Origin: a virus
Taxonomy: Duplodnaviria; Caudoviricetes
Strand: one strand, 5' to 3'
IMG/VR virus record: IMGVR_UViG_3300032117_002338
Coordinates: 1-53,414 of that record
Length of the DNA stretch: 53,414 bases
Shown here: piece by piece, positions 16,647 to 48,460 of the stretch
Layout: the number at the start of each line of letters is the position of its first letter
Numbering within the stretch: position 1 is the stretch's first letter
The notes under the pieces: model-generated
Databases searched by the model: none
What the model saw: the letters and a program-made list of their open reading frames with translations, nothing else
Told to the model about the DNA's origin: nothing
Made by a program: the position numbers and the translations under genes

Positions 16647-16720
16647 AGGTCGTAAGTGTTATGGTAGCACGCTGAGCTCCAACCTCAGAAGCGCGGGTTC
16701 GACTCCTGCACGACCTGCCA
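16647..16720 (+). tRNA. tRNA-Trp(CCA)
   Basis: CTGAG-CTCCAAC-CTCAG; G73; CCA. Confidence 0.92.
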
Positions 16721-25353: not shown

Positions 25354-25520
25354 TGCTGCGCAAGGCATGGCGGTATTGGGCTAAGGCCCTGGGGGAGAAG
25401 GCATCCGACGATTCAGCCGAGGCTGACAGGGTGGCGCTGATAAGGACGGCCATAGTGCTGTGCTACATCATCACCAACTGCTTCATCGTCGCCGGCGTCA
25501 TCAAGCACTGGAACCAATAG
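25353..25520 (+). CDS. Small phage membrane protein (WRYWAKALGEKA...IRT type)
   Basis: 55 aa, TGATG overlap, C-terminal hydrophobic helix. Confidence 0.7.
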   Translation: MLRKAWRYWAKALGEKASDDSAEADRVALIRTAIVLCYIITNCFIVAGVIKHWNQ

Positions 25521-25522
25521 AC

Positions 25523-25582
25523 GCATCCGTAGCTCAGTGGAACAGAGCAGCAGACTTCGAATCTGCGGGTCGGGGGTTCGAA
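25523..25582 (+). pseudogene. 5' part of canonical tRNA-Arg(TCG), interrupted in the T loop
   Basis: GCATCCG-TAGCTCAG...GCAGA-CTTCGAA-TCTGC...GGGGGTTCGAA then breaks into HNH gene. Confidence 0.85.
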
Positions 25583-26290
25583 CATAAATAGAGTATGAAC
25601 TATAAGAAACTTTACGACAATATCATATCTAAGGCCAAAACAAGACCAATCTCAGGTTATACTGAAAGGCATCATATTGTACCCAAGTCGTTCGGAGGTA
25701 CTGATAAGAAAGATAACATCGTTAGGTTAACTGCTAGGGAACACTTTATCTGCCATTATCTCCTATGTAAGATAACAGTTCCTAAATCTATCGAATGGTA
25801 TTCGGCTATAAAGGCATTTAATATGATGTGTTCTAAATCTAACACACATCAAAGATACATTAACTCGCGACTATACCAGTCAATGCGACAGCATATGTCT
25901 ATTACAATGAGTAATCTTCAGTCTGGTTCTAAGAACTCTCAATATGGAAGTTGTTGGATAAACAAGGAAGGTATCGTAAAGAAAATTCCTCAAGAATATC
26001 TCACAACATATGAGCAAGAAGGTTGGCAAAAAGGTCGAAAACCTCCAAAACCTCCAAAAGTAAGACCAGACAAACCTCTGAGAATTCTGAAGCGTCCTCA
26101 ATCTTCGGGTGTTAAGAATAGCCAATTTGGCTCATACTGGATCAACAACGGTAAAGACAATAAGAAGATTCGATCATTAGATATTCCATCTGGATGGACC
26201 AAAGGTCGGTTAATGAAAATGATAAATTAGCACCCGTATGCCGCCTGGCTTCGAACCAGGAGAAAGCTAATGGAATCACGGGGGTTCGAA
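25583..26290 (+). mobile_element. AT-rich HNH cassette inserted in tRNA-Arg, bounded by 12-nt direct repeat CGGGGGTTCGAA
   Basis: Repeat at 25571-25582 and 26279-26290; abrupt GC drop. Confidence 0.75.
25595..26230 (+). CDS. HNH homing endonuclease
   Basis: MNYKKLYDNII...YTERHHIVPKSFGG...NIVRLTAREHFICHYLL; repeated SGxKNSQxGSxWIN..GWxKGR modules. Confidence 0.92.
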   Translation: MNYKKLYDNIISKAKTRPISGYTERHHIVPKSFGGTDKKDNIVRLTAREHFICHYLLCKITVPKSIEWYSAIKAFNMMCSKSNTHQRYINSRLYQSMRQHMSITMSNLQSGSKNSQYGSCWINKEGIVKKIPQEYLTTYEQEGWQKGRKPPKPPKVRPDKPLRILKRPQSSGVKNSQFGSYWINNGKDNKKIRSLDIPSGWTKGRLMKMIN

Positions 26291-26307
26291 TCCCTCCGGG
26301 TGCTCCA
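26230..26307 (+). tRNA. Non-canonical tRNA-Arg(TCG) lacking a positional D arm
   Basis: GCACCCG/CGGGTGC-T-CCA; only 7 nt before CCTGG-CTTCGAA-CCAGG; 19-nt variable region; canonical T arm. Confidence 0.7.
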
Positions 26308-26392
26308 ATTAAATGTTGACGCGTCATGCAACCGTCACACACCCGCGGTTAAATAACCGTGCGATGCAACGACAACACAGCAGGGGTGACAC

Positions 26393-27442
26393 ATGTCCAG
26401 GGTACTGTTCATACTGAAGCGCAGGGAAGATTTCAACAGTGCCGTGCACAACAAGATAGGGCTGACCACCGGCCTATACAACTCGGCCAAGTTCATGGAT
26501 GACATGCTGGTCGACAATGGCGTCGACAGCCGGTTGGAGGTGGTCATAGACAACAACGACATAGATAGGGTGGTCACCGCGCACAGGCCCACGCATGCGA
26601 TAATAGAGGCGCTATGGGTGGTGCCGACCAAGTTCGCGGAGCTGAGGAGATTGCATCCCAACGTGACATGGATCATACGCCTGCACAGCGAGATGCCATT
26701 CATGGCCGGCGAGGGCATGGCCATGGATTGGATAGGCGACTACAGCGGCATGGCCAACGTGATCATGGCCTGCAACGCGCCTAGGATGCTGAAGGAGATA
26801 CGCAGCTACCTGGGGATCCGCAACGGATGGAGCGAGGAGATCGCGGCGCAGAGGGTCATATACCTTCCCAACTTCTATCCACAGGCATACACGAACAAGC
26901 AGCCGGATCGCGAAAAAAACGTCATTGATATCAGCTGCTTTGGGGCCATCAGGCCGCTTAAGAACCATCTGTTGCAAGCACATGCCGCGATACAATTCGC
27001 GGAGGTCCTAGGCAAGAGGCTTAGGTTCCACGTCAACGCCGGGCGCATCGAGATGAAGGGCGAACCCATGGTCCACAACCTCAGGGGGTTGTTCCAACAG
27101 CTGGCGGAACGGGGGCATGCCCTGATAAACCACGAGTGGGCCCCGCGTGAGGAGTTCCTGCGTCTGTGCGCCACCATGGACATGGGCATGCAGGTCAGCT
27201 TCTCGGAGACCTTCAACATAGTGGCGGCGGATCTCATCAGCCAGGGCGTCCCTGTGGTGGGCAGCATCGAGATACCATGGATGACCGCGGACTGCTGCGC
27301 CGATCCAACCAACAGCGAGGACATGGTGGCCAAGATGATCAAGGTGTGGGACGATCCCTCCGCCGTGGTTTCGGCCAACCAATCGGCTCTCACCGAATAC
27401 ACCAACCAGACCGTGGCCCAATGGCTGCGGCAGCTATCATGA
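26393..27442 (+). CDS. Glycosyltransferase (GT-B fold)
   Basis: FGAIRPLKN, SFSETFNIVAADLISQGVPVVGS nucleotide-sugar motif. Confidence 0.85.
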   Translation: MSRVLFILKRREDFNSAVHNKIGLTTGLYNSAKFMDDMLVDNGVDSRLEVVIDNNDIDRVVTAHRPTHAIIEALWVVPTKFAELRRLHPNVTWIIRLHSEMPFMAGEGMAMDWIGDYSGMANVIMACNAPRMLKEIRSYLGIRNGWSEEIAAQRVIYLPNFYPQAYTNKQPDREKNVIDISCFGAIRPLKNHLLQAHAAIQFAEVLGKRLRFHVNAGRIEMKGEPMVHNLRGLFQQLAERGHALINHEWAPREEFLRLCATMDMGMQVSFSETFNIVAADLISQGVPVVGSIEIPWMTADCCADPTNSEDMVAKMIKVWDDPSAVVSANQSALTEYTNQTVAQWLRQLS

Positions 27443-42378: not shown

Positions 42379-42542
42379 TCATGAGATGTGCATACTTGCA
42401 CGGTAAATACCTCACCGCAGATCATGCGGTTGGATAGCTCTCATAGTATAAAAGCAGTACACGTGATTGGTAATCACGAGACGCAGGGGCGGTACCTGCT
42501 GGGAGCACCATTCCTCACCCAGAGGACGATAAATATTCTTCC

Positions 42543-44396: not shown

Positions 44397-44509
44397 ACGC
44401 TGTCAACCATTAAATCTCGATCACATGTGCATGCATGTTTGATATTCAGGTTGCGCCTCCCGCGGCGTCTTGGTTAAATAACTACAGTGAAAACGCGGGA
44501 GTTCCACAC

Positions 44510-46447
44510 ATGTCCAACATCTTCGACGAAATACTCCAAGAGCGGAAATCCAAGAAGAGGGAGTCGATGGACTTCCTGGAATTCCTCAAGCTCTGCAAGA
44601 AGGATCCAACAACCTACGCCTCGGCCGCAGAGCGGATGCTGGCCGCCATCGGTGAGCCAGAGATGGTTGACACCAGCAGGGATCCGCGCCTCAGCAGGAT
44701 ATTCCTCAACAGGACGCTGCGCATATATCCGGCGTTCTCGGATTTCTACGGCATGGAGGAGACCATCGAGCGCATAGTGGGTTACTTCCGCCATGCGGCA
44801 CAGGGCCTCGAGGAGAAGAAGCAGGTACTGTATCTGCTGGGACCGGTTGGCGGCGGCAAGAGCAGCCTGGCCGAACGCCTCAAGGAGCTGATGACCAAGA
44901 ACCCGTTCTACGTGCTGACCGCCGAGGACGGCACCATGAGCCCCGTGTTTGAATCCCCTCTCGGAGTGTTTGACGTGCGCAAGCATGGTGCACGCCTGCA
45001 CAAGGACTATGGCATAGATCCTCGATATCTAGGCGGTGTGATGAGCCCGTGGGCCGTCAAGCGCCTTGCGGAGTACGACGGAGACATATCCCGCTTCAAG
45101 GTCACCAAGGTGTGGCCCAGCAAGCTGGAGCAGATAGGCGTGGTCAAGACCGAACCCGGTGACGACAACAACCAAGACATATCGAGCCTGGTGGGCAAGA
45201 CCAACATACGCATGCTGGAGCACTTTGACCAGAACGATCCGGACAGCTACTCTTTCTCGGGTGCCCTGTGCCGCGGCAACCAGGGCATCATGGAGTTCGT
45301 GGAGATGTTCAAGGCTCCCATCAAGATGCTGCATCCGCTGCTAACGGCGACGCAGGAGGGCAACTACATCGGCACCGAAGGCATATCGGCCATACCGTTC
45401 AACGGCGTGGTGCTGGCACACAGCAACGAATCCGAGTGGCAGAGCTTCAAGAACAACAAGAACAACGAGGCATTCATCGATCGCATCTACGTGGTCAAGG
45501 TGCCTTACTGCCTGCGCGTCAGCGATGAGGTGCACATCTACGAGAAGATGCTGGAGAACAGCAGCCTCGGCGGCGCCAACTGCGCTCCGCAGACGCTGGA
45601 CATGCTCAGCAGGTTCTGCGTGCTGACCCGCCTGTCTCCTCATGAGAACAGCAACCCCTACAGCAAGATGCGCGTGTATGACGGCGAGACCATCAAGGAC
45701 GTTGATCCCAAGGCCCGTAGCATGCAGGAGTATCGCGATGCCGCGGGCATTGACGAGGGCATGGGTGGCATCAGCACGCGATTCGCGTTCAAGGTGCTGA
45801 GCAAGACCTTCAACTTCGATCCCAACGAGATAGCGGCTGATCCGGTGCATCTCATGTACGTGTTGGAGGACAGCATACGCAGGGAGCAGTTCAGCACGGA
45901 GGTCGAGGAGAGATACATCGACTTCATCAAGGACAGCCTGTCACCACGCTACGCCGACTTCATAGGTCATCAGATACAACAGGCGTATATTGCGAGTTAC
46001 TCAGAATTTGGACAATCGAGCTTCGATCGATACGTGGAATATGCGGATGCTTGGATACAGGAGATCGACTTCAAGGATCCCGACACCGGCAATCTCTATG
46101 ACAGGGAGATTCTCAACAAGGAGCTGGAGAAGATCGAGAAACCAGCCGGCATAGCCAACCCCAAGGATTTCAGGCATGAGGTGGTCAACTTCGTGCTGAG
46201 AGCCCGCGCCAAGAACGGCGGTGCGGTGAGCTGGACCAGCTACGAGAAGCTGCGCGAGGTCATCGAGAAGAAGATGTTCGCCAGCGTCGAGGATCTGCTT
46301 CCGGTTATCAGCTTCGATAGCAAGAAGGACAAGGAGATTGAGTCAAAACATATCGACTTTGTCAACAGGATGGTTAAGAGCGGATACACCGAAAAACAGG
46401 TGAGAAGGCTAGTTGATTGGTTCATGCGTCATCAGAAGTCGTCTTGA
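44510..46447 (+). CDS. prkA: PrkA/YeaG AAA+ serine kinase family protein
   Basis: LLGPVGGGKSS, KTEPGDDNNQDISSLVGK, EFVEMFKAPIKMLHPLLTATQEG. Confidence 0.96.
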   Translation: MSNIFDEILQERKSKKRESMDFLEFLKLCKKDPTTYASAAERMLAAIGEPEMVDTSRDPRLSRIFLNRTLRIYPAFSDFYGMEETIERIVGYFRHAAQGLEEKKQVLYLLGPVGGGKSSLAERLKELMTKNPFYVLTAEDGTMSPVFESPLGVFDVRKHGARLHKDYGIDPRYLGGVMSPWAVKRLAEYDGDISRFKVTKVWPSKLEQIGVVKTEPGDDNNQDISSLVGKTNIRMLEHFDQNDPDSYSFSGALCRGNQGIMEFVEMFKAPIKMLHPLLTATQEGNYIGTEGISAIPFNGVVLAHSNESEWQSFKNNKNNEAFIDRIYVVKVPYCLRVSDEVHIYEKMLENSSLGGANCAPQTLDMLSRFCVLTRLSPHENSNPYSKMRVYDGETIKDVDPKARSMQEYRDAAGIDEGMGGISTRFAFKVLSKTFNFDPNEIAADPVHLMYVLEDSIRREQFSTEVEERYIDFIKDSLSPRYADFIGHQIQQAYIASYSEFGQSSFDRYVEYADAWIQEIDFKDPDTGNLYDREILNKELEKIEKPAGIANPKDFRHEVVNFVLRARAKNGGAVSWTSYEKLREVIEKKMFASVEDLLPVISFDSKKDKEIESKHIDFVNRMVKSGYTEKQVRRLVDWFMRHQKSS

Positions 46448-46451
46448 TACA

Positions 46452-47195
46452 ATGGATTACTCATCTCATTATTCCAGGTTAATAGAGAGAGCAAGACCAA
46501 GAGGGTTAAAGAAACCTTCTAGGTCAGATGAATCATACGTCTACTATGAATCACATCATGTGATTCCGCGATGCTTGGATGGGTCAGACGACCCATCCAA
46601 TATGGTTCTACTCACACCACAGGAACATTATGTAGCACATCTCCTACTGATGAAAATGCATCCAAACATCAAATCGTTGGTCTATGCCGCACAGATGATG
46701 ATAGTCGGTGGTTCACGTAACAATAAGTTGCATGGTTGGCTGAGAACCAAGGCAAGTCGAATGATATCTGAGGATTTCGAACGGGCCAAGAAGATAGGAC
46801 GAACCCTAACCGGTAGGGTAGTATCCGAGCATGTGGGTCGTAAGATATCACAATCAAATATCGGGAGACAGACATCTGAATTGACAAGGGCTAAGATATC
46901 TGTCAGCACCAAAGGCAAACCAAAAAGCATTGAGCATAGAGAGAAGATAAAGGCGGCCCTATCTGGCAAGAAGCATTCTGAATCACATATCACCAATTTG
47001 ATCAAGAGTAAGCGCAGAAACGGAACATTAGGTCATTCATCTACGGCTAAACGTAAAATCAGCAACACCTTATCTCAGCTGAGATGGTTCAATGATGGTT
47101 CGGTTAACATACGCATCGCCGGCGATCCACCAGAAGGGTTTAAGTCTGGTCGATTAAAAATGATGCGTAAAAGAAACACATCTGATCAGGAGTGA
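46452..47195 (+). CDS. Free-standing HNH homing endonuclease with NUMOD3-like repeats
   Basis: YESHHVIPRCLDG..NMVLLTPQEHYVAHLLL; HSESH/KSIEHREKI repeats; AT-rich. Confidence 0.9.
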   Translation: MDYSSHYSRLIERARPRGLKKPSRSDESYVYYESHHVIPRCLDGSDDPSNMVLLTPQEHYVAHLLLMKMHPNIKSLVYAAQMMIVGGSRNNKLHGWLRTKASRMISEDFERAKKIGRTLTGRVVSEHVGRKISQSNIGRQTSELTRAKISVSTKGKPKSIEHREKIKAALSGKKHSESHITNLIKSKRRNGTLGHSSTAKRKISNTLSQLRWFNDGSVNIRIAGDPPEGFKSGRLKMMRKRNTSDQE

Positions 47196-47200
47196 GGGGT

Positions 47201-48460
47201 ATGTCAGATTACCACATAATAGATCGGCGGGATAACCCCAAGGGCAAGAACCTGCCCAACAGGCAGAAGTTCCTCAAGAAGGTGCGCAAGCACCTCAAGG
47301 AGCAGGTGCGCGATGCCATGGGCAAGAAGCGCATAACGGACGAGGGTGGCACCGACATAGTGGTGCCATCGGACGGCATAAGCGAACCCAGCTTCGACTA
47401 CGATCGCAGCACAGGAGAGTGGGATAGGATACTGCCGGGCAACAGGGACTTCAGCGCCGGGGATAGGGTCAAGAAACCGGACCAAGGTGGCAAGGGTTCC
47501 GGCAGCAAGGCCGGCAATGGCGGCGACGGTGAGGATGACTTCCGTTTCACCATAACCAGGGACGAATACCTGGACATGGTGTTCGAGGATCTCGAGCTGC
47601 CTGACATGATCAAGACCAGCGAGAAGGCGGCCGTGGCTTGGCAGCGCGTGAGGTCCGGGTTCAAGACCGACGGTAACCCCAGCCAGCTGGATCTGGTGCG
47701 CAGCCTGAGGAACAGCCTGGGACGGCGACTGGCACTGCGGAAGCCGGTCGAGCGCAAGATGGACGAGCTCGAGGCATTGCTGGAGGACAGCGAAAACCCC
47801 GAGCTGCTGCTCGAGGAGATCGAGAAGCTGAGGAGGAAGCGCAACGCCGTGCCATGGGTAGATCCCATAGACATAAGATACAGGCGCTGGGACAAACGCC
47901 CCATACCCAACAGCCAAGCGGTGATGTTCTGCCTGATGGACGTCAGCGGCAGCATGGGCGACAGGGAGAAGGAGATAGCCAAGAGGTTCTACCTGCTGCT
48001 GTATCTGTTCCTTGAACGCCAATACGAGAAGGTGCAGATCGTGTTCGTGAGGCACACGGACACCGCCAAGGAGGTGGACGAGCGCGAGTTCTTCTACGGT
48101 ACCGAGAGCGGTGGCACCGTGGTCAGCAGCGGGCTACGGATGGTGAACGACATCATCGCGCAGAGGTATCCCTTGGATGCGTGGAACATATACGTGGTGC
48201 AGGCCTCCGACGGTGACAACTGGATGGGCGACAACGACGAATGCAGGGAGCTGCTGGCCAAGCTGCTGCCGTTGGTGCAGTATTACGTCTACGCCGAGGT
48301 CAGGCAGAGCCATCCAATATACGGAGACACCGGGCTGTGGAAGATGATGTCCGATCTGATCGGCTCATACAAGCAGATGGCGGTGGCCAGCATACCCAGC
48401 GTGGACCAGGTGGTCCCGGTGTTTAGGCGAGTGTTTGCGAAGGAGAAGGCCAATGGTTGA
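47201..48460 (+). CDS. yeaH: YeaH/YhbH (DUF444) vWA-like protein
   Basis: IIDRR.NPKGKN, AVMFCLMDVSGSM, ESGGTVVSS, QASDGDNW. Confidence 0.95.
   Translation: MSDYHIIDRRDNPKGKNLPNRQKFLKKVRKHLKEQVRDAMGKKRITDEGGTDIVVPSDGISEPSFDYDRSTGEWDRILPGNRDFSAGDRVKKPDQGGKGSGSKAGNGGDGEDDFRFTITRDEYLDMVFEDLELPDMIKTSEKAAVAWQRVRSGFKTDGNPSQLDLVRSLRNSLGRRLALRKPVERKMDELEALLEDSENPELLLEEIEKLRRKRNAVPWVDPIDIRYRRWDKRPIPNSQAVMFCLMDVSGSMGDREKEIAKRFYLLLYLFLERQYEKVQIVFVRHTDTAKEVDEREFFYGTESGGTVVSSGLRMVNDIIAQRYPLDAWNIYVVQASDGDNWMGDNDECRELLAKLLPLVQYYVYAEVRQSHPIYGDTGLWKMMSDLIGSYKQMAVASIPSVDQVVPVFRRVFAKEKANG

Follow-up and report, generated by a model that had tools for sequence, protein, structure and literature searches.

A homing endonuclease gene and a re-wired tRNA-Arg(UCG) gene probably form a mobile cassette that entered the T loop of a resident tRNA-Arg(UCG) gene and replaced the resident tRNA like for like, without an intron, at positions 25523 to 26307 of the viral record IMGVR_UViG_3300032117_002338. 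The whole record, 53,414 bases of IMG/VR sequence, is referred to here as the window. Its completeness rating of 13% indicates that it is probably a fragment, and its source is probably a very large phage of lake water. The proposed cassette combines a late-promoter-like motif, a MobE-like HNH endonuclease gene and a tRNA-Arg(UCG) gene that abuts the endonuclease gene. The abutting tRNA gene belongs to a separate class that recurs in other phages.

Results

The resident tRNA-Arg(UCG) gene is broken in its T loop

The locus begins on the + strand with the relic of a canonical tRNA-Arg(UCG) gene (25523-25582). Its 60 nucleotides (nt) correspond to tRNA positions 1 to approximately 59 and comprise the acceptor strand GCATCCG, the D arm, the anticodon loop CTTCGAA (anticodon TCG), the variable loop, the T-stem strand GGGGG and the six T-loop bases TTCGAA, and the 3' end is missing. 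After 25582 the sequence continues as CATAAATAGAGTATG, which places the break in the T loop. The 12-mer CGGGGGTTCGAA that precedes the break (25571-25582), composed of variable-loop C48, the T-stem strand and the T-loop bases, has the left junction at its 3' edge and recurs at 26279-26290, 708 nt downstream. The window contains exactly these two copies, and 100 shuffled sequences contained none. The second copy is followed by TCCCTCCGGGTGCTCCA (26291-26307), which supplies the rest of the T arm, the acceptor 3' strand, the discriminator T and CCA and fits the relic and the downstream gene alike.

ARAGORN detects 30 tRNA genes in the window, all on the + strand. None of them is a tRNA-Arg gene, and none lies in 25523-26307. 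Rfam adds three matches to this set, namely a tRNA at 42437-42507 and two pieces of the split locus, 25523-25578 (30.5 bits, without the T arm) and 26230-26304 (39.4 bits). When 25523-25582 and 26291-26307 are joined exactly, ARAGORN calls a tRNA-Arg(tcg) of 77 bases, whereas the unjoined pieces yield no call; this evidence is a single exact join, as brute-force joins were discarded as too permissive. The acceptor strands GCATCCG and CGGGTGC of the joined molecule form six Watson-Crick pairs and one G-U pair. The preliminary description, made from the sequence alone, had claimed a canonical tRNA-Arg that stops at 25582, the same 12-mer 708 nt further on, a join that restores a complete tRNA through this pairing and the inactivation of the target gene. 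Each of these claims is borne out, and the resident gene persists as a 60-nt 5' relic.

The same description had named an assembly misjoin at the 12-mer as a danger to its reading, and the Logan contigs of run X2 do end near the repeat, where records 27 and 28 meet at 25574-25584. Yet a 375-nt contig of another study (X13) spans 25390-25764 with 0 differences, a 1537-nt contig of X2 spans 25574-27000 with 1 difference, the stretch is wholly or partly present in 20 of 22 listed runs from 15 studies, and assemblers usually work with words longer than 12 nt. Independent metagenome contigs from other runs cross both junctions; the split-tRNA structure is therefore real, and a misjoin has next to no chance of accounting for it.

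A free-standing HNH gene fills the insert

The inserted 708 bases are largely occupied by one open reading frame (ORF; 25595-26230, +), which takes 636 of them and leaves 12 and 60 nt outside it. Its stop codon ends on the first base of the next tRNA gene. The encoded protein of 211 amino acids (aa) matches phrog_655, 'homing endonuclease', over residues 1-190 (E 1.7e-45), and blastn aligns the ORF with annotated mobE genes of T-even phages. The Pfam HNH match reaches 18.7 bits, under the cut-off of 21.4, and a PDB sequence search with the protein returned only a weak HNH-motif match to McrA (E 0.029). Residues H26, H27, N41, H50 and H54 are invariant in 11 aligned sequences (the window protein, nine relatives and a second copy from the window), and with its catalytic H-H-N-H residues kept the enzyme looks intact. 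The ORF has a GC content of 36.6% compared with 55.6% for the window, and the 25601-26000 bin (0.352) is the window minimum, which suggests that the HNH gene is either a recent arrival or a perpetual foreigner. The AT-rich HNH gene of the preliminary description is thus firmly in place.

A group I intron in a tRNA gene was considered and rejected. Intron families have no match in the region (Rfam, E ≤ 10) or in the window (E ≤ 0.05), the 72 nt outside the ORF are too little RNA for an intron, and the break lies in the T loop. Known bacterial tRNA introns sit in the anticodon loop. These observations agree with the earlier view of an intron-less, free-standing element. They also make it very improbable that the old tRNA is still produced at the RNA level, either with the 708 nt as a self-spliced or enzyme-spliced T-loop intron or as a two-piece tRNA. 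The relic and the 3' end could indeed pair through a 7-base-pair (bp) acceptor stem and a 5-bp T stem, and the relic bears no obvious decay. Apart from the missing group I and group II matches and the small remainder beside the ORF, however, the 60 nt that such a model would have to remove belong to a tRNA family that is conserved in its own right and competes with the old tRNA for the 3' end.

Four nucleotides before the HNH start codon stands ATAAATA (25584-25590, +), which we take to resemble the late promoter consensus of phage T4. The window has 15 copies against 1.98 expected, an approximately eight-fold enrichment, and 12 of them are on the + strand. The same motif, as (T)ATAAATA, lies 5' of the HNH ORF in eight relatives (L082, L084, L087, L089, L090, L094, L095 and L097). 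ATAAATA is probably a late-promoter motif of the phage. A promoter and terminator scan found no sigma-70 promoter on the + strand before the HNH gene and no terminator. Of the TAAATA promoter described earlier, the motif is therefore present, and its promoter function stands as a prediction.

Several ATAAATA sites in the window lie directly after or before tRNA genes; examples of ATAAATA sites are found at 16720, 21812, 36889 and 42529. The site at 42529 follows the tRNA at 42437-42507 (+), a tRNA-Thr(GGU)-like gene that scores 50.1 bits with Rfam, is missed by ARAGORN and has the T loop GGCGGTA instead of the usual TTCGAAT type. The window also encodes a second HNH homing-endonuclease-like ORF (46413-47195, +; 260 aa, GC 0.433), which is 27% identical to the first and keeps the HNH motif. 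Its neighbours, a 670-aa gene (44435-46447) and a 422-aa gene (47192-48460), overlap it at either end. A low-GC island (0.445-0.48) with a 182-aa ORF (1478-2026) occurs at 1201-2000.

The downstream element is a member of a re-wired tRNA-Arg class

The region 26230-26307 (+) is a complete non-canonical tRNA-Arg(UCG) gene. Its acceptor stem has 7 bp and its anticodon stem 5 bp, the latter closed by the 7-nt loop CTTCGAA; the T arm is normal, with a 5-bp stem and a GTTCGAA-type loop, and CCA is encoded. Positions 10 to 25 contain no D-arm hairpin. The pairing partner of nt 11-13 is a strand located 3' of the anticodon arm, and a D-loop-like TGGA is merged into the variable region. In the Rfam alignment of 26230-26304, the D arm is accordingly deleted, with 4 nt in place of 15, and 16 nt are inserted after the anticodon arm; ARAGORN makes no call. 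The preliminary description had seen here a new 5' tRNA portion with the same anticodon. The anticodon loop is indeed identical to that of the relic, but a canonical 5' half is not what precedes the 3' end: the 'replacement 5' half' and the 3' end together are a full member of a separate, re-wired class of tRNA-Arg.

We drew a search pattern for this class from the window copy and from the element of the same layout that follows the HNH gene in its relative L089. The pattern hit 46 stretches in viral contigs versus 1 in 185,579 bacterial and archaeal genomes (one genome per species). Alignment A1 comprises 34 distinct sequences and the window copy, 35 members in total, and defines the class together with a covariance model, R1. 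R1 gives 26230-26307 a score of 85.9 bits, within the range of clear members (82-101), versus 31 bits for the best canonical tRNA in the window. In addition to this family-range score, the window copy has the other features that define the class, namely an Arg anticodon, the GAAAG..TAA.TGGA motif and the helix formed by columns 11-13 and 37-39. Its pairs G11-C39 and C13-G37 are present, and a 1-nt gap at column 38 is a subtype trait. With 2 columns that deviate from the 90% consensus, the window copy is no more divergent than other members, and its closest relative is L154, which is 88.6% identical and comes from the same kind of lake sample.

In each member, a 7-bp acceptor stem leads through TA and T to columns 11-13 and on to an anticodon stem of 4-5 bp, whose loop has 7 nt. 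After the anticodon arm come GAAAG, columns 37-39 (a strand of 2-3 nt), TAA(n)TGGA(n)ACAT, an ordinary T arm and the acceptor 3' strand; CCA is encoded in 26 of the 35 members. Wherever letters are present, columns 11-13 and 37-39 pair. The 11:39 pair is AU in 16 members, GC in 12 and CG in 7 and is never unpaired, pair 12:38 is CG in 21, UA in 2 and AU in 1 (gaps in 11), and the otherwise invariant pair 13:37 is switched to G-C in the phage Mildred21. For the whole structure, 96.1% of cells are paired and the covariation score is 0.767, a value that none of 500 shuffles reached (best slid control, 0.15). The pairing means that the strand after U8-A9-T10 runs straight into the anticodon arm and its partner returns after the arm. 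The D-loop-like TGGA then leads to the T stem, and the stacked D-plus-anticodon arm and the contact between GG and the T loop would be kept with a changed strand order.

Two non-canonical tRNA-Arg genes that differ in anticodon occur together in some phages, as in L137 (2684-2845, − strand), where they are 3 nt apart, and also in L120, L121, L130 and L152. L130 and L120 contain a more divergent subtype with a CGG/CCG helix, which scores 57.5 and 47.8 bits, respectively.

The class bears signs of decoding function

Arg anticodons are present in all 40 members, 35 aligned and 5 found by the model. The aligned members have ACG (17), TCT (12), TCG (4) and CCT (2), and the other five have TCG three times, TCT and CCT. 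TGGA is invariant in the class, including the A after GG, and this A thus stands at the would-be place of A20, which we assume to be the main identity base for arginyl-tRNA synthetase (ArgRS). Other tRNAs are encoded at 32 of the 35 loci, and the members lie in tRNA arrays on the same strand and with canonical-like spacing. Fifteen loci also have canonical tRNA-Arg genes, whose anticodons do not overlap with the non-canonical ones in 14 cases. Within L142 and within L150, the acceptor stems of the canonical and non-canonical tRNA-Arg genes are identical, so exchange between the two kinds seems to occur.

These regularities bear on an alternative in which the downstream element is a conserved structured RNA and no working decoder, perhaps a decoy of nucleases that attack tRNA or a signal by which RNase P processes the HNH message, and the tRNA-Arg(UCG) gene was destroyed without rescue. 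The missing D hairpin, the D arm dropped from the Rfam alignment and the lack of any ARAGORN call among the 35 members (ARAGORN being the sole standard finder run) speak for such an RNA, as does the statement, in the available part of a 2024 paper, that all known bacterial tRNAs are cloverleaf (PMC11551756). CCA is not encoded in 9 of 35 members, though this is normal where CCA is added post-transcription. On the other hand, the same partly available source describes an engineered D-arm-less tRNA, mini HisT, that Escherichia coli HisRS, EF-Tu and the ribosome accept (PMC11551756). Considering also that the anticodons are exclusively Arg, that TGGA is invariant, that the anticodon fills a slot free of canonical tRNA-Arg in 14 of 15 loci and that strand and spacing in the arrays are those of canonical genes, we find a non-decoding element quite improbable.

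Three cultured actinophages carry a class gene, the Streptomyces phages TunaTartare and Mildred21 and the Microbacterium phage Zooman. The gene is unannotated in TunaTartare and Zooman. In Mildred21 (locus L243, 695-773; record 91367-91442), GenBank lists it as tRNA-Phe(gaa), and R1 identifies it as a non-canonical tRNA-Arg(UCG) at 88.4 bits; an annotated HNH endonuclease gene stops 1 nt short of it.

Related HNH genes also follow truncated tRNA genes

Relatives of the HNH gene lie among tRNA genes in 15 of 30 scanned loci. We read the flanks of 28 such loci and confirmed the downstream genes with ARAGORN or Rfam. A truncated tRNA directly precedes the HNH gene in nine of the 28 loci (seven distinct sequences). 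Seven loci (five distinct: L083, L084-86, L087, L095 and L097) share with the window a break in the T loop, which falls after GGTTC, GGTTCG(A)(A) or GGTTCAAA. In six loci (four distinct: L083, GCT; L084-86, TTC; L090, TGT; L097, CCA), the tRNA that comes after the HNH gene has the anticodon of the relic, and in L095 a Leu CAA relic is followed by Leu TAA. Exceptions to like-for-like replacement are L087, where a Gly relic is followed by Ser, and L082, where Arg(UCU) is split and only the acceptor 3' strand comes after the ORF.

In a 195-nt contig of X13, a diverged HNH start, with 10 differences over 134 nt, follows a tRNA-Arg(UCG) relic other than that of the window, with the same junction. 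The anticodon stem of this relic, TCGCG/CGCGA, differs from that of the window relic, GCAGA/TCTGC, and is fully paired in both. The paired differences in this one low-depth contig suggest that two working tRNA-Arg(UCG) alleles may each have been invaded.

Abutment of a nuclease gene and a non-canonical tRNA gene recurs in L089/L152, where the two are 1 nt apart, and in TunaTartare and Mildred21, where the nuclease belongs to another family (annotation: endonuclease VII or HNH) and the gap to the tRNA is 0-1 nt. A constant linkage of this HNH gene to non-canonical tRNA genes was considered and rejected, since it abuts 2 of the 35 class members.

Three of these loci have a perfect inverted repeat just 5' of the nuclease start, namely L089 (~1435-1497, enclosing TATAAATA), TunaTartare (L242, ~400-438) and Mildred21 (L243, ~215-245), and the repeat arms of the two Streptomyces phages contain TTCGAA. 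In TunaTartare, isolated T-arm-like pieces (GGTTCGA... with stems) without 5' halves lie 3' of the nuclease-tRNA pair (L242, ~1130-1250), like a graveyard of overwritten tRNA genes.

A syntenic relative has an unbroken tRNA-Arg gene

The gene that follows the locus (26393-27442, +) encodes a 349-aa, weakly glycosyltransferase-like protein (Pfam Glyco_trans_1_4, E 0.055, under the cut-off) and served as an anchor for comparison. The synteny set comprises 80 viral and the best 80 metagenome relatives of this anchor gene, and the closest of these 160 is 71% identical at the aa level. No tRNA lies within 250 nt upstream of the anchor in 120 loci, 7 have no upstream DNA, and a tRNA-Arg occupies the anchor site in L001 (same contig as L161) alone.

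L001 provides the comparison with a relative lacking the insert that the preliminary description had proposed. It has no HNH gene and carries an intact canonical tRNA-Arg(CCG), which ends 76 nt before the anchor orthologue. The window relic is alignable with this tRNA through the acceptor stem, D arm and variable loop, and the differences in the stems are paired. The last 17 nt of the L001 gene are identical to the window 3' end at 15 positions and share CGGGTGCTCCA. None of the 160 syntenic loci has this HNH gene between a tRNA and the anchor gene. An R1 search of the 80 viral-contig loci, which did not extend to the 80 metagenome loci, found no non-canonical tRNA near the anchor.

In the metagenome relative L228, a distant HNH relative (2016-2327; 38% identity over 109 aa) lies approximately 170 nt before the anchor gene on the opposite strand. 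Runs that contain about 0.4 of the words of the stretch were considered as carriers of an empty site and rejected, as their cover is merely patchy.

Discussion

A possible path of replacement

The locus would be explained by the following sequence of events. The HNH enzyme would act on intact canonical tRNA-Arg genes, with a cut or nick in the T loop or close to it, and the break would be repaired from a cassette-bearing genome, with the left junction at the break. A right crossover in the T arm common to both tRNAs would generate the 12-nt repeat, so that the resident 3' end serves the new tRNA. The re-wired tRNA would supply the lost decoding, and its gene would escape cutting because the sequence 5' of the T arm is wholly different. 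The element would thus replace an RNA gene like for like and without an intron, on the principle of cleave-and-rescue.

The position of the right crossover is suggested by column 52 of the class alignment, the first base of the second 12-mer copy. This base is C in the window, as in the old variable loop, and T in all 34 other class members. A crossover between the cassette and the resident gene at the left edge of the repeat is likely on this ground, and we hold this assignment loosely. The earlier claim that the old 3' end is reused gains a trace from column 52, without being settled by it.

Weighing the replacement against prior tandem genes

Several observations weigh against a replacing cassette. 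The 4 nt between ATAAATA and the start codon are too few for a usual leader. The sole empty site, L001, is distant (71% aa identity), has the anticodon CCG and is AT-rich (GC 0.38). An empty-site allele of the window phage itself was not found, with the exact 40-mer of the old gene occurring in 0 viral contigs, and the four runs examined contain no contig that skips the insert. There is no RNA run among the listed runs that hold the stretch. For the re-wired fold, RNAalifold recovers the acceptor, anticodon and T stems of the class and does not predict the 11-13:37-39 helix, and the single-sequence fold of the new element is no better than those of shuffles (z = 0.15). The 17-nt 3' end fits either parent, given that the canonical L001 gene ends alike and that GGGGG/CCCTC T arms are common in the class, and the single C at column 52 may have arisen by point mutation. 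GCACCCG, the acceptor 5' strand of the new gene, is one base from the old GCATCCG and one from that of L154 and already matches the resident 3' strand perfectly, so a replacement needs the extra assumption of a related donor or later compensation.

The linkage of nuclease and tRNA is also sparse across the class. Apart from the window and L152, the two of 35 members that this HNH gene abuts, uncharacterised ORFs (84-125 aa) abut three members, and in the case of 30 no ORF of at least 80 aa abuts. Moreover, canonical and non-canonical genes with the same anticodon stand side by side in Zooman (canonical ACG at locus positions 550-622, non-canonical ACG at 694-772) and in L143. The non-canonical gene could therefore predate the arrival of the HNH gene.

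The main alternative builds on this point. Canonical and non-canonical tRNA-Arg(UCG) genes would already have stood in tandem, and the HNH gene alone would have landed between them, removing the last 17 nt of the first gene and the spacer and bringing no replacement. That L154, the nearest class relative from the same kind of lake sample, has no HNH gene in its 7.4-kb locus agrees with this account. It is less easily reconciled with the HNH stop codon that overlaps the first base of the tRNA and with the 0-1-nt abutments in L089/L152, TunaTartare and Mildred21, which involve two nuclease families. Moreover, the 80 viral-contig syntenic loci have no non-canonical tRNA near the anchor, L001 carries the canonical gene only, and a crossover with the old gene would account for the unique C at column 52. 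We consider the tandem account unlikely and a cassette that carried its own replacement tRNA the probable explanation.

The preliminary description had spoken of a homing element that inactivates its target and yet rescues its function. The broken gene, the free-standing HNH gene, the same-anticodon tRNA that follows and the recurrence of this pattern among HNH relatives agree with it; the rescue part is qualified by the finding that the replacement belongs to a separate class and could be older than the HNH insertion.

A broader proposal is made tentatively, with somewhat less than even confidence. Phages may hold a second, topologically re-wired and working tRNA-Arg, whose D stem ends in the anticodon arm and whose D loop is part of the variable region. 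Its gene would serve as the uncuttable rescue half of natural cleave-and-rescue cassettes, with which homing nucleases of at least two families replace canonical tRNA-Arg genes like for like. The altered topology might, in addition, conceal the RNA from tRNA-Arg-targeting nucleases of the host.

If so, the sets of tRNA-Arg in phages would be under-counted, as ARAGORN misses the class, and a class gene is entered as tRNA-Phe in at least one GenBank record. Carriage by cultured Streptomyces and Microbacterium phages makes charging, structure and nuclease immunity accessible at the bench.

Comparison with known systems

To our knowledge, homing endonucleases enter essential genes only as passengers of self-splicing introns or inteins; the others are encoded next to their targets. 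The present locus and its relatives would represent a third route for RNA genes, in which the resident is broken and a substitute is supplied in the same step. Synthetic cleave-and-rescue drives follow the same logic: a nuclease destroys the ordinary allele of a needed gene and is linked to an uncuttable recoded copy. Those drives are engineered, use Cas9 and address protein-coding targets, whereas the present system would be natural, acts on an RNA gene and has fold topology as its 'recoding'.

The MobE and Mob enzymes of T-even phages belong to the same protein family as the window HNH (phrog_655, blastn) and are likewise encoded by free-standing HNH genes, with MobE presumably located between nrd genes. 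In the available part of one source, Mob HNH endonucleases are reported to nick their targets, and, unlike for the window HNH, no tRNA target or rescue gene is shown for them (PMC13096335). SegB of T4 and T6 is similarly a free-standing nuclease gene among phage tRNA genes. The accessible portions of two papers state that T4 SegB has a 27-bp recognition site with a conserved T-psi-C stem-loop motif of tRNA genes, cuts the 3' ends of tRNA genes and drags neighbouring tRNA genes along in crosses (PMC2330249; PMC13096335). Because SegB recognises the T-psi-C motif, a T-loop target has a precedent. Unlike the window HNH, SegB is a GIY-YIG enzyme encoded between intact tRNA genes, and these portions describe no broken resident or re-wired replacement tRNA (PMC2330249; PMC13096335). 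HNH ORFs in a phage tRNA cluster are also reported, with no mention of a broken-plus-replaced tRNA pair in the part of the paper that is available (PMC2330249). More generally, the literature covered, in which most subscription journals are not included, contains no description of the present tRNA shape or of a broken-plus-replaced phage tRNA; this literature includes the review PMC7609411, in which the words 'phage' and 'viral' do not occur.

The closest structural parallels to the new class are the mitochondrial tRNAs that lack the D arm and, according to the accessible part of that review, still work (PMC7609411), and the engineered mini HisT. All of them share the absence of a D hairpin. 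Unlike these D-arm-less tRNAs, the phage class keeps a covarying 3-bp helix closed by the anticodon arm, followed by the D-loop-like TGGA, and as a substitute tRNA it would be a natural exception to the statement, in the part of the source available, that bacterial tRNAs are all cloverleaf (PMC11551756).

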